From positions 35,733 through 99,732 of the forward strand of contig JAAFHY010000003.1 of assembly GCA_013298505.1 (NCBI GenBank): a stretch of DNA of 64,000 nt. The letters run 5' to 3'. The notes beneath the pieces were generated by a model. It did not search any database and had not been told where the DNA came from. It saw only the letters and a program-made list of their open reading frames with translations. A program made the position numbers and the translations under genes. Each line of letters starts with the position of its first letter. Position 1 is the stretch's first letter. This stretch comes from Cytophagales bacterium (GTDB lineage: Bacteria > Bacteroidota > Bacteroidia > Cytophagales > Cyclobacteriaceae). Below, one piece after another: positions 26,704 through 31,516 of the stretch.

Positions 26704-29166
26704 ATGGCCATGTTTCGCAATTATATCAAAACGGCTTCTCGCAGTCTTTTTAAACAAAAAGTCTACACGATCATCAATATTGCAGGGCTTGCGGTAAGCA
26801 TTACATCGTGCTTGCTAATTGCCTTGTACGTAAAAAATGAACTTTCGTACGATCGCTTCTTTCCCAATGCAGATCGAATTTTTAAAATGTCATTAGAAAG
26901 AAAATATCCTAGTCACTCAACGTTTTATGCCTCTATCCCTCATTCTTACGCCACGGTAGTGCAACGCGATTTTCCCGAAGTAGAGAACACCATGCACATT
27001 GGCGGCTCAGGGAAAAACTCGAATATCAAGTACAAAGTAAGTGACACCGAAATCAAAACATTTGAAGAGGATTATTTTATGTTTTCTGATTCTGCTTTTT
27101 TCTCATTTTTTGATGTTGGCTTATTGAAAGGCGATAAAAAAACAGCTCTTGCATTACCAAATCAAGTGATTCTTTCTAAGACTACAGCCCATCGATACTT
27201 TGGGGAAGAAGAACCTATTGGTAAAGTTATCTCAGGAGATTTTGGCGAATTAAAAGTAACAGGTGTGTTTAACGATTTGCCATCGAATTCTCATTTGCGA
27301 TTTGATGCGATGGTTTCTTTTTCTGCTGCCGAATTTCGCAAAACAGAAAACTTTATCACGTTTGATTCTTATACCTATATCAAACTGAGGCCTGGGGCAT
27401 CAGCAAAAACATTGGAGGCAAAGTTTCCTAAAATGGTGGAGACATATGCTGCGGGTCAAATTGAGCGCGAGTTGAGGCAATCGTGGCGAGATTATAAAAA
27501 GGCCGGCAACGGGTATAGATATTTTTTGCAACCACTTACATCCATTCATTTAGATCCTACCAACTTAGAAGGCACAATCGCACCCAGTGGCAACCGAAAT
27601 CATGTATATGCTCTAATCTTTATTGCAACTCTCATTTTATTGATTGCTTGTATCAACTTTATGAATTTAGCTACCGCTCGTTCAGCCGAGCGTGCACGCG
27701 AGGTGGGGGTGCGCAAAGTGATGGGATCACTGAAGAGCCAATTAGTAACTCAATTTCTTACCGAGGCGATGCTTCTCTCATTCATTGGAACACTGCTCGC
27801 TATCTTGGGAGCTTATTTGTTATTGCCATCTTTCAATGCATTGGTTGGAAAAAATCTGCAATTTATTTTCGGAGCTAAAATTATTTTAGGGTTAATGGTT
27901 ATTGTGCTTTTAGTAGGATTGTTGGCTGGCCTTTATCCAGCATTTGTTTTGTCGAATTTCAATCCAGTAATGGTAATGAAGGGAAATTTTACAGGAAGCA
28001 CAAAAGGATCTTGGCTCCGCAATGGATTAGTTGTTTTTCAATTTATGATTTCTATTGTTCTTATTGTAAGCACCGTTATAGTTAGCAGGCAAATGGATTT
28101 CATTCAAATGAAAGACCTTGGCTTCGATAAAGAAAAAGTATTGATGATTGACCGTGCTTGGGCATTGAACAAAAATGGGGAAGTGTTTAAAGAAGAAATA
28201 AAAAAGTTGCCAGAAGTTATTGCCGTAACGGGTACTAGCTCACGCGTAGGCAATCGCGATGATGTTTTTGGGCAGATGTTTCAACCGCAGGGTACCAATG
28301 AAGTATTGACCGTTAAATCAATGGCGTTGGAAGATGACTTTGCGGAGATGATCGGCTTCAAACTAAAAGAAGGAAGATTTTTTAGCAAAGAAACTACCGA
28401 CTCCCTTCATATTCTTCTTAACGAATCGGCTATTAAGACACTCGGTTTGACCGGCCCAATCGGGAGGAAACTTTCCAACACCGATCTTTTTCAAGGAGAT
28501 TCACTGAAGTTCAAGACGCGACTCTTTACAATTATCGGGATCGTAAAAAATTTTCACTTTCAATCGTTACATGACGAGGTTACACCATTGGTCATGTTCA
28601 ATAAAGAGGTTTTTGGGCGCGATGTCAATTCAAATTATGTAGCTGTAAAACTAAAATCCAATAACGCTCAATCTGTACTGGCCACTATTGAAAGTAAGTG
28701 GAAGGAGTTAGCGCCAGAGCGGCCATTCCATTATGAATTTCTAGATGAAAATCTTCATCAGAGTTATGTGGAAGAACAACGGTCGGGAAAATTATTTTCT
28801 GTTTTTTCTGGCTTGGCCATTTTGATTGCTTGCGTGGGTTTATTTGGATTATCAGCCTACACAGCAAGCCTGCGCACCAAAGAGATTGGTATTCGCAAAG
28901 TAATGGGAGCTTCGGTAAGCAGCGTGCTTGTTTTGTTGTCGAAAGATTTTACCAAACTGGTTTTAATAGCTTTTTTATTGGCCACTCCACTAGCGTGGTG
29001 GATGATGAGCGAATGGCTAGGGGGCTTTGCTTACCGAATCGAATTGGGAATTGACTCGTTTGTTTTAGCAGGAGCGATTGCGATTTTGATCGCGTTACTT
29101 ACGGTTAGTTATCAGTCCATCAAGTCCGCTATTGCTAATCCGGTAAAATCGTTGAAGAGCGAATAA
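26704..29166 (+). CDS. ABC transporter permease, MacB/FtsX family
   Basis: FRNYIKTASRSL, INFMNLATARSAERAREVGVRK, RTKEIGIRKVMGAS, NPVKSLKSE. Confidence 0.93.
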   Translation: MAMFRNYIKTASRSLFKQKVYTIINIAGLAVSITSCLLIALYVKNELSYDRFFPNADRIFKMSLERKYPSHSTFYASIPHSYATVVQRDFPEVENTMHIGGSGKNSNIKYKVSDTEIKTFEEDYFMFSDSAFFSFFDVGLLKGDKKTALALPNQVILSKTTAHRYFGEEEPIGKVISGDFGELKVTGVFNDLPSNSHLRFDAMVSFSAAEFRKTENFITFDSYTYIKLRPGASAKTLEAKFPKMVETYAAGQIERELRQSWRDYKKAGNGYRYFLQPLTSIHLDPTNLEGTIAPSGNRNHVYALIFIATLILLIACINFMNLATARSAERAREVGVRKVMGSLKSQLVTQFLTEAMLLSFIGTLLAILGAYLLLPSFNALVGKNLQFIFGAKIILGLMVIVLLVGLLAGLYPAFVLSNFNPVMVMKGNFTGSTKGSWLRNGLVVFQFMISIVLIVSTVIVSRQMDFIQMKDLGFDKEKVLMIDRAWALNKNGEVFKEEIKKLPEVIAVTGTSSRVGNRDDVFGQMFQPQGTNEVLTVKSMALEDDFAEMIGFKLKEGRFFSKETTDSLHILLNESAIKTLGLTGPIGRKLSNTDLFQGDSLKFKTRLFTIIGIVKNFHFQSLHDEVTPLVMFNKEVFGRDVNSNYVAVKLKSNNAQSVLATIESKWKELAPERPFHYEFLDENLHQSYVEEQRSGKLFSVFSGLAILIACVGLFGLSAYTASLRTKEIGIRKVMGASVSSVLVLLSKDFTKLVLIAFLLATPLAWWMMSEWLGGFAYRIELGIDSFVLAGAIAILIALLTVSYQSIKSAIANPVKSLKSE

Positions 29167-29324
29167 ATTGGTTTCTAAGAATCCGAATACCCACTATCAT
29201 CGCGAAGCAAAGATGAGATAAGTCAAGAAAAAAGTAGTTCATGGAGATAGGTGAAGAACACCCAATATGGACAAGGAATAGAAACAACCAGCTATCTTTG
29301 GCTTAGTTGTTAAAAAAAGAATCT

Positions 29325-29653
29325 GTGAACATCTTATTCATTTGCAGTCGAAATCAATGGCGCAGCCCTACTGCCGAAACTATTTTTAAAGATAGACCTG
29401 GCATACAAGTTCGTTAGGCAGGCACAGCGAATAGCGCGCGCATTAGCGTATCCGAAAAAATGCTGCTATGGGCAGATTTAATTTTTGTGATGGAGAAAAA
29501 GCACAAAGGAATAATTACAGAGAAATTCTCATCAATTTGTTCCAAAAAAAAATGGTTGTGCTTGATATAGTTGATGAGTATCAATACTTGGATAATGAAC
29601 TAATTGAAATGTTGACGGTATCGATAGAGCCGTATTTAAAAGAATTCATTTGA
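29325..29653 (+). pseudogene. Low-molecular-weight protein tyrosine phosphatase pseudogene
   Basis: GTG 29325 gives VNILFICSRNQWRSPTAE (CX5R); in-frame TAG at 29415-29417 inside VR[S]AGT; continues WADLIFVMEKKH; frameshift near the 9-A run (~29545-29552) to VVLDIVDEYQYLDNEL; TATCTTTG at 29293-29300. Confidence 0.85.
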
Positions 29654-29788
29654 GGTCGAAGTGATGGAGACTTCCCAACCAAATTTTATAACCTTCTATC
29701 CGACAGCGCTGTTGGAGTTGACCGCATTCCAATACCAAGCATAATTGCAAAACAATCTATTAAAACAAATTAAGTCACCAAATGAAAT

Positions 29789-29971
29789 CATTAGTGTCCA
29801 GTTAAAATCAATCATTTACGCTAATCCCCATAGCTAAAATCAATGAATTTACACCGTGAAGATTTGAACTTTGGTTTTGCTCGGAGAAAAAAATTTATCG
29901 TGCATTCTGATGTATCTTAAGTGTTTTCTTTATAAAAAATTTGAAGTATTAAGTTTAACTGGACACTAATG
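29789..29971. mobile_element. 183-bp MITE (non-autonomous IS derivative)
   Basis: Perfect 18-bp TIRs CATTAGTGTCCAGTTAAA / TTTAACTGGACACTAATG; 9-bp direct repeats AAATGAAAT at 29780-29788 and 29972-29980. Confidence 0.85.
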
Positions 29972-29973
29972 AA

Positions 29974-30288
29974 ATGAAATATAAAAAATGGCTGTTAAAG
30001 TATCTGAGTCCTTTCTTACTGGTTTCCTACACCTGTTTGGGTAGAGCAGTTGCTATGATTGTAAGTGGCGATACTGGTTTTGGGCTGGTTTTTATTCAGC
30101 TCCTGCTAGTCTTAGCATTATTTTTTTTAATGGCCGATTTTTTTTTAAAAAGAATATTCAAAGAGAGCACAAGGACTGTGTTGTTGTTAGAGGCTACCAT
30201 TTCTTTGATTCTAGTTCTTGGTTCGCTATATCTTGAATTTAGAAAAAGTAAACATGAGCCGGGCATAATTAACGTAAAACCAGTTTAA
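29974..30288 (+). CDS. Hypothetical membrane protein (about 3 TM)
   Basis: 104-aa hydrophobic ORF; its ATG lies in the MITE target duplication. Confidence 0.5.
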   Translation: MKYKKWLLKYLSPFLLVSYTCLGRAVAMIVSGDTGFGLVFIQLLLVLALFFLMADFFLKRIFKESTRTVLLLEATISLILVLGSLYLEFRKSKHEPGIINVKPV

Positions 30289-30388
30289 TCCCTCTAGGCC
30301 GTGGTTCTCGTGTCTGTGCCAACCATTACCATTACCAATACTAAATTTTCAGTGAGCGTGTGCTTGGAACGCCCATTCCTGATTTATA

Positions 30389-30862
30389 TTAAGAATTAGC
30401 ACCCTCATAGTCTTGAATCATTTTTTCGGTTAGCGGTTCTGCAAATTCGTAGTAACCCGTAAACCACGATTTCAGGTTTTCTATTTCCTTTTCGTTGGTA
30501 ATTTTATAAAAGAGCTCTTCATGATCTTTGATGCCCTCGAGCGTAAAGGTACCCGAACCAATAAAGGCTATTGTTTTGCGAAAGGGCAAATCAAAAATGT
30601 ACACGTTGGCGTGAAAGATGTTTTGGGTGTAGATGTTAAGTGTGATGCGACCTTGATAGTTGCGCCAAATTCGATGCAACACTTCGCGCGCGGTAAGTCC
30701 ATTCAATCCGGTAACGATATCCATTTTAGTTTTGGTGGGAATACGGCTGCGGATGAAATCAAATCCTTCTTCTGAAATAGCAGCGGTGGCAATGTAACAG
30801 TGCTCTACCTGTTGTAAAAGTTTTTCGTTGATAAGCGGAACGGCTAGTTTTTTTATGATCAT
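30389..30862 (-). CDS. Phospholipase D-like (NgoFVII-type nuclease fold) protein with degenerate HKD motif
   Basis: IATAAIS, IFHANVYIF...AFIGSGTFT...HEE; ATG 30862, 10 nt after the greB stop. Confidence 0.7.
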   Translation of the reverse strand: MIIKKLAVPLINEKLLQQVEHCYIATAAISEEGFDFIRSRIPTKTKMDIVTGLNGLTAREVLHRIWRNYQGRITLNIYTQNIFHANVYIFDLPFRKTIAFIGSGTFTLEGIKDHEELFYKITNEKEIENLKSWFTGYYEFAEPLTEKMIQDYEGANS

Positions 30863-30872
30863 CCGAGCAATC

Positions 30873-31349
30873 TTATTTTTGGTACTCAATTTTAACAATC
30901 CTCCAAACAAAATTTCTTAAGGGTGTTTTTACTACCACCTCATCACCCACTTCTTTTTTCAGTAGTGCTTGTGCCATTGGCGAGTCCATCGAGATATAAT
31001 CTTTTGCGCCAATTAGTTCTTCACCACCTACTATTCGAAGTCGGTTCTTCAAACCACTGTTATTTTCAATTTCCACCCATGCGCCAAACATCACCTTCCC
31101 TTCTTGGTAAGGCGAGTAGTTTATCACCTTTAAATCGTCTATGCATTTGCGTAGGTACAAAATACGCTTGTCAATTTCTCGCAGGCGTTTTTTGTTGTAA
31201 TGATAGTCTGCGTTTTCAGAACGATCGCCAAGGCTTGCCGCCCAGTTAACTTTTTGTGTGGTGTCGGGGCGCTCTATACGCCACAGGTGATCAAGCTCTG
31301 CTTTCAGTTTTTCTAACCCTTCGGGCGTAATCATTAGTGTTTTCATCAT
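30873..31349 (-). CDS. greB: Transcription elongation factor GreB
   Basis: ITPEGLEKLKAELDHLWRIERP, AASLGDRSENADY, ISMDSPMAQALL. Confidence 0.92.
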   Translation of the reverse strand: MMKTLMITPEGLEKLKAELDHLWRIERPDTTQKVNWAASLGDRSENADYHYNKKRLREIDKRILYLRKCIDDLKVINYSPYQEGKVMFGAWVEIENNSGLKNRLRIVGGEELIGAKDYISMDSPMAQALLKKEVGDEVVVKTPLRNFVWRIVKIEYQK

Positions 31350-31516
31350 CGCGGCATAAAGTTGCAGAGATTCTACGAATATCTACTTACTTCTACCGAT
31401 GCAAAAAAATAAGTGAGAATGGATATGGTAAAATTCCCTCTAATGAAATTTATTTGTTGATTAAAAATACCAAACCGATTCCTCTGATATTTCCGAACAA
31501 GCTATTGAACAACAAA

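Follow-up and report, generated by a model that had tools for sequence, protein, structure and literature searches.

MITEAba12 of Acinetobacter baumannii, together with its parent insertion sequence (IS) ISAba12, is the closest functional counterpart of the Cytophagales MITE analysed here. Like the Cytophagales element, MITEAba12 is short and non-autonomous, has terminal inverted repeats (TIRs) and a 9-bp target site duplication (TSD) in common with its parent IS, and inserts into AT-rich targets; an effect on neighbouring genes through outward-facing promoters has been proposed (PMC6382973). MITEAba12 is 113 bp long, highly conserved, and present in many copies alongside its active parent (PMC6382973). 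By contrast, members of the Cytophagales family are 180–192 bp long, occur in very few copies that are 46–83% identical to each other, and have no intact parent in the genome studied here. The MIC231 elements of Bacillus cereus, related to IS231, are also non-autonomous, trans-mobilized derivatives of an IS4-family element, with ends that begin 5'-CAT (cited in PMC2266710). However, the MICs carry passenger genes, whereas the 183-bp MITE carries none.

Direct repeats flanking IS4-family elements are approximately 8–13 bp long, as opposed to 4–6 bp in IS701, ISH3, and IS1634 (PMC2266710, Table 1), and those of the parent IS of the Cytophagales MITE measure 9 bp. Subgroup IS4Sa is characterized by ends of the form CA------T, a length of 1150–1750 bp, and direct repeats of 8–10 bp (De Palmenaer et al. 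2008, PMC2266710, Table 1). Judged from ends, size, and repeat length only, the parent IS is probably most like IS4Sa: it has 5'-CA ends, a length of 1301 bp, 9-bp repeats, and a transposase with the complete YREK signature. The ends of the T variant, CATTAGTGT..., which are carried by the MITE described here, also have the T at position 9, whereas a G is found at this position in the variant that predominates in the genus. The IS231 subgroup, with direct repeats of 10–12 bp and a length of at least 1450 bp (PMC2266710, Table 1), was rejected along with MIC231 as an assignment for the parent, because its 9-bp repeats and length of 1301 bp do not fit and only the CAT ends agree. Subgroups IS10 and IS50, the ends of which begin with CT or CW (PMC2266710, Table 1), were rejected because the ends of the parent begin with CA; the 9-bp target duplications are the only property shared with Tn10 and Tn5.

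The window is a stretch of 64,000 nucleotides (C130:35733–99732) from a genome assembly of 3.96 Mb in 206 contigs that is 98.9% complete. Positions 29789–29971 of the window are, with a probability of roughly 90%, a type I MITE derived by internal deletion from the 1301-bp IS4-family IS and probably stranded at present. The perfect 18-bp TIRs (18 of 18 positions matching) and the 9-bp duplication holding the start codon of a membrane protein gene, which an earlier note on this DNA had described, are read directly from the sequence, and all coordinates given in that note are correct. The site reads ...caccAAATGAAAT/CATTAGTGTCCAGTTAAA...TTTAACTGGACACTAATG/AAATGAAATataaaaaatgg, and without the element the joined flanks would read ...AAGTCACCAAATGAAATATAAAAAATGGCTG.... 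A repeat finder reports the exact direct repeat AAATGAAAT on both sides of the element, with a distance of 192 nt from start to start, and the TIRs as an imperfect repeat of 25 nt with 92% identity, of which the outer 18 nt are perfect. The probability that all nine flanking positions match by chance is about 5e-6 at the base composition of this region. When up to three mismatches are allowed, the TIR 18-mer matches the 64-kb window only at the two ends of the element; shuffled sequences contain a mean of 0.04 matches, and none of 100 contained two. The G+C content of the MITE is 30%, compared to 41% for the window. Its length is below the limit of approximately 300 bp for MITEs, which lack a transposase gene, and its longest internal ORFs have 30–32 codons. 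The possibility that the element is a known RNA was discarded based on scans with Rfam, which at a permissive threshold gave a single chance match outside the MITE in positions 28500–31500, and with ARAGORN, which detected neither tRNAs nor tmRNAs across the window.

Table 1 Features at the insertion site of the MITE (window coordinates).
Feature	Position	Strand	Remarks
LMW-PTP-like pseudogene	29307..29653	+	In-frame TAG at 29415–29417; frameshift in A9 run at 29545–29553
Non-coding right end of IS256-family IS	29642..29750	+	Degenerate remnant, 77% identity
TSD, left copy AAATGAAAT	29780..29788	+	Holds stranded original ATG (29782–29784); from sequence and direct repeat
Seven-codon ORF MKSLVSS*	29782..29805	+	Stranded ATG reading into left TIR
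183-bp MITE	29789..29971	+	IRL to IRR on + strand, by homology with 5' region of parent IS
IRL CATTAGTGTCCAGTTAAA	29789..29806	+	T variant, T at position 9
Conserved subterminal motif CCGTGAAGATTTGA	29854..29867	+	Family consensus GGTGACGATTTGA
IRR	29954..29971	-	Perfect reverse complement of IRL
TSD, right copy AAATGAAAT	29972..29980	+	Holds working start codon of the gene (29974–29976)
Small membrane protein gene, 104 aa	29974..30288	+	Intact ORF

The MITE belongs to a family of ten short elements of 180–192 bp, which are located at ten unrelated sites, and all ten are flanked by an exact 9-bp TSD of their own. This family bears out the interpretation of the segment as a MITE in the earlier note. 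The elements originate from genus loci with the TIRs, species-representative genomes of the order, and a metagenome contig: one is that of the window, one is a sibling in the same genome, seven are from genomes of the genus and order, and one is from the metagenome contig. The sibling (C68:8266–8445) is 72% identical to the window MITE and has its own TSD, ATTCCTGCT, and the TIR sequence CATTAGTGGCCAGTTAAA on both arms. A pattern search for the TIRs in 177 species of the genus detected the ends in 20 other genomes. Only paired matches and clustered hits at contig ends were accepted, and single exact TIR matches in unrelated phyla were not counted; by the authors' arithmetic, an 18-mer would be matched by chance about 35 times in 596 Gb. 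The copy number of the short family is low, with at most two copies found per genome and two in the genome studied here. The closest relative of the window MITE found anywhere is approximately 75% identical (L049), and pairwise identities among the nine elements that were aligned are 46–83%. A scan of metagenomes for complete MITEs added one new copy only, and a scan of the genus with a looser core pattern gave no further copies. The shared length and the similarity over the whole length of the short elements indicate that they spread as short elements and were not formed one by one.

Besides the two TIRs, the only part conserved among the nine aligned elements is an internal motif of 13 nt, GGTGACGATTTGA, positioned 65–76 nt from one end, which gives an orientation to the otherwise symmetric element. 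The copy in the window, CCGTGAAGATTTGA, contains a C-to-A change that is absent from the other aligned copies. At loci L023–L060, both arms of any given copy of the MITE or IS contain the same TIR variant, either GTGTCC/GGACAC or GTGGCC/GGCCAC, and both arms of L025 additionally have CAC...GTG. The matching of the arms reflects either separate IS lineages, each with its own MITEs, or the arms being kept alike within an element. The 9-mer targets are A/T-rich; 12 of the 14 TSDs start with A (position 1), and 12 end with T (position 9). The symmetry of this pattern recalls Tn5 and Tn10, which show symmetric target preferences.

The 18–19-nt TIRs of the MITE match the ends of an IS of 1301 bp, full-length copies of which are present at seven loci of the genus and order (L026, L027, L029, L038, L046, L056, and L094), with an exact 9-bp TSD in four of the seven. 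Two additional copies of 1301–1302 bp with these ends are found in Pyrinomonadaceae MAGs. The ends of the T variant also occur in L034, L039, L042, and on contig C151 of the genome containing the window. A single ORF of 390 residues between the ends of the IS encodes a transposase with the domains DUF4372 and DDE_Tnp_1 (Pfam DDE_Tnp_1, 3.5e-28). The transposase scores 264 bits against the NCBIfam model transpos_IS4_1, the cut-off of which is 115, and carries YKYRWKIELFFKWIK, corresponding to Y-2-R-3-E-6-K, the signature of the IS4 family. Together with the 9-bp TSDs, these properties substantiate the IS4-family assignment that had been proposed from the ends of the MITE and the length of its TSD. 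The search for other TIR copies and an autonomous parent, which the earlier note had suggested, thus returned both: a second copy in the genome and the 1301-bp IS in other species. Among plasmid records, the nearest relatives with an annotation are genes labelled only "IS4 family transposase", without a name, with 50–57% identity, and the 1301-bp IS and the MITE are a previously unnamed IS4-family pair in uncultured Cytophagales. At L056:3382–3390, in a Bacteroidetes MAG, the left flank of a full-length IS copy is AAATGAAAT and the right flank is different; the occurrence of this 9-mer may be a coincidence or reflect target preference.

The MITE encodes no transposase and retains from the IS the TIRs of about 19 nt and the 13-nt subterminal motif. 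In the IS, the motif is located 75–88 nt from the left end and precedes the transposase ATG (position 117) by approximately 30 nt. The distance of the motif sequence GGTGACGAYTTGA from the left end is 75 nt for both the IS and the MITEs of 191–192 bp, and 65–66 nt for most MITEs of 180–184 bp. Similarity between the MITEs and the IS extends up to the transposase ATG, which is ATC in the MITEs. For the window MITE, the similarity to the IS beyond the TIRs and motif is weak.

By analogy with Tn5 and Tn10 of the IS4 family, transposition would proceed by a cut-and-paste mechanism, in which a TIR-bound DDE transposase makes target cuts staggered by 9 bp. The cognate transposase, acting in trans, would have excised the MITE and pasted it into a staggered break at AAATGAAAT. 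This 9-mer would have overlapped the start codon of the 104-aa gene, and repair of the break would have duplicated it, with the right copy restoring the start codon so that the gene remained whole. The gene would thereby have been moved 192 bp further from its old upstream DNA, in agreement with the distance claimed in the earlier note and with the 192 nt between the starts of the direct repeats, and a seven-codon ORF would have remained at the old ATG. This ORF, which had also been noticed previously, reads ATG AAA TCA TTA GTG TCC AGT TAA from position 29782. The last three bases of the right TIR form another ATG that faces outward (29969–29971); it reads ATG AAA TGA and does not share the frame of the gene.

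No intact gene for a cognate transposase is present in the 206 contigs of the 98.9%-complete assembly. The only cognate match in the genome, C151:1662–1985, corresponds to residues 1–108 of 390, with 74% identity. It is part of a truncated IS (L098, C151:1662–2104) that consists of the left end CATTAGTGTCC-GTTAAAA, which is the T variant with a deletion of 1 nt, the DNA preceding the transposase gene, and codons 1–108, followed by unrelated sequence. A toxin-antitoxin-like gene pair adjoins this remnant on C151. None of the contig ends in the genome carries the TIR, and it is therefore unlikely that multi-copy parents were collapsed in the assembly. Because the only cognate IS in the genome is truncated, the MITE is most likely stranded, and it is probably immobile in this genome now. 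A second IS4-family IS, on C200, was considered as a helper and rejected, because its TIR, GCATAGCCGTCAAGCTAAG, is unrelated. This element (L111, C200:1–1553) is apparently intact, with a perfect TIR of 19 nt and a transposase of 398 residues. The earlier note had called the transposition recent. The perfect TIRs and TSD fit a fairly young insertion; however, the absence of relatives above approximately 75% identity, the 72% identity of the sibling, and the truncation of the cognate IS do not bear out this part of the claim.

The gene downstream of the MITE has an ORF without lesions, as had been stated before. Its product belongs to no Pfam family and has two or more stretches of strong hydrophobicity. 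A search of 176 other species of the genus did not detect the gene. Two metagenomic homologues of the protein have sequence identities of 69% and 61%; a pattern scan of metagenomes for additional relatives gave 575 hits, none of which was confirmed. The pairwise dN/dS of the gene and its homologues is 0.27–0.32, which shows that the gene is real and that its family is under purifying selection. None of 40 relatives could be aligned across the insertion site to provide an orthologous empty site. Because no orthologue was found, only the metagenomic homologues could be used for this comparison. In the start region of one of them (L021), cgcAAATGAAATataaaaaatgg, the 9-mer AAATGAAAT is present once, at the start codon; the start region of the other (L020) is AAATGGATT. 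On sequence evidence, L021 serves as the empty-site configuration, in a homologue with 71% nucleotide identity rather than in an allele. The prediction that a relative would contain a single copy of the 9-mer at the start codon thus holds with the same restriction.

The MITE is located in a mosaic region. The pseudogene upstream, for a protein resembling a low-molecular-weight protein tyrosine phosphatase (LMW-PTP), has an intact paralogue of 86% identity at C171:16406–16744. Both the paralogue and the pseudogene are positioned downstream of a gene for an FtsX/MacB-type permease. On C171, the phosphatase gene directly abuts a homologue of window positions 30382–30436, the 3' end of a PLD-like gene. 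This junction indicates that 745 bp at 29638–30382, including the IS256-family remnant, the MITE, and the 104-aa gene, are extra in the window. The sequence ATTTA borders the 745-bp segment at either end. The right end of the IS256-family IS contains a conserved, outward-reading sigma-70-like sequence, TTGACC-16-TATAAT/CATAAT, and the remnant in the window has TTGACC-16-CATAAT (29718–29745) facing the 104-aa gene. The MITE now separates this sequence from the ATG of the gene. The IS256-family IS, which has a Mutator-type transposase in L106, is carried by 28 of the other 176 species in the genus, and breaks the assembly at no fewer than four contig ends (C7, C200, C172, and C123), which share a terminus of 127 nt, ...AACTGACACAGTTTAATTTACAGACCC. 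Convergent with the 104-aa gene, on the minus strand at 30389–30910, is a gene for a 173-residue protein with a PLD-like/NgoFVII-type nuclease domain. Two copies of this protein are encoded on contig C80 of a relative (G020), and the region of the PLD-like gene may be variable or of a defence type.

The consequences of the insertion for the expression of the 104-aa gene can be estimated from sequence features, and the estimates overlap. There is about an even chance that the insertion is tolerated and expression is kept. It is less probable, but not improbable enough to neglect, that its effect is to silence or dampen the gene. The old promoter would now be 192 bp further away, and in a read-through RNA the 18-bp stem formed by the TIRs would extend to 2 nt from the start codon, thereby occluding the start of translation. 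As RNA, the element is predicted to fold at -47 kcal/mol (z = -5.3), and its closing stem consists of the TIRs. The decay of the neighbourhood, evident from the phosphatase pseudogene and the IS256-family remnant just upstream, and the failure to find the gene in the 176 other species also agree with a loss of expression. By contrast, the full-length ORF without lesions and a dN/dS of about 0.3 for its family speak against this reading, and if the insertion is old, the intact ORF and purifying selection argue for its continued use.

Less likely still, the MITE may be a mobile promoter or 5' leader, in which the retained region from upstream of the transposase gene drives or modulates expression of the 104-aa gene. 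According to the homology with the IS, transcription in the direction of the transposase gene would run from the window MITE into the 104-aa gene. In five of the ten family members, the start of a co-oriented gene is positioned within 49 nt of the right end of the element (3, 12, 18, 37, and 49 nt), whereas in none of the ten is a gene start located within 50 nt of the left end, and the genes adjoining family members have intact ORFs. However, the bias in orientation disappears when the limit is extended to 70 nt, where the numbers are five and approximately four, based on crude ORF calls and n = 10. Furthermore, the interior of the MITE lacks an exact Bacteroidota-type -7 box (TAnnTTTG) reading into the gene, and there is no good sigma-70 pair entirely inside the element, only a weak match of 9 out of 12 at its right edge.

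The landings at gene starts may be explained by target choice, in that A/T-rich 9-mers are typical of the A-rich stretch at start codons. In L037:1678–2280 (G144:C165), the TSD abuts the ATG of a lipoprotein gene, and the terminal ATG of the element is in frame with this gene, which gives a possible N-terminal extension of four residues, MKLT-MKKSV.... In L025, 17 nt separate the element from the start of a downstream gene, the product of which looks from its N-terminus like DNA-3-methyladenine glycosylase I (Tag). A role of the 13-nt motif as a binding site for a host regulator was rejected, because the genome contains only 14 near-matches, two of which are in the MITE and in the IS remnant. 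The broader idea that the family is an old, low-copy set of portable promoters or 5' leaders that rewire the expression of the target gene, in this case that of a small membrane protein, would follow from the retention of the transposase-upstream region with the strictly conserved 13-nt motif, the A-rich targets of the form A-N7-T, which resemble the sequences at translation starts in Bacteroidota, and the fact that all five copies near gene starts point into the gene; it is rated as a little more doubtful than a promoter or leader role at this site.

The least probable alternative, and a very improbable one, is that a full 1301-bp IS inserted at this site and was later deleted in place, with the 183-bp segment never having moved as a MITE: internal deletion derivatives of the IS do arise, such as the 819-bp L042 with its own TSD, and the genome carries a truncated cognate IS, but the ten elements at ten unrelated sites are all 180–192 bp long, they resemble each other from end to end, even in the right half, which cannot be aligned to the IS (as in the comparisons of the window MITE with the C68 sibling and L049), independent in-place deletions would not give the same length and the same junction, and the alignment suggests that one deletion breakpoint is common to all the short elements.

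The insertion of the MITE, derived from the 1301-bp IS by internal deletion, is an ordinary kind of event that changes nothing in the knowledge of MITEs; the subterminal motif and the landing beside start codons are the only points of further note. Recognition of the element is of value for annotation, as it keeps the segment from being taken for a regulatory hairpin. Because the 13-nt motif is the only conserved part besides the ends, it is a candidate for a cis-acting site in transposition or in the regulation of the transposase gene. The locus provides a clean natural case in which a TSD rebuilds a start codon, so that the gene is preserved although everything upstream of it has been exchanged.
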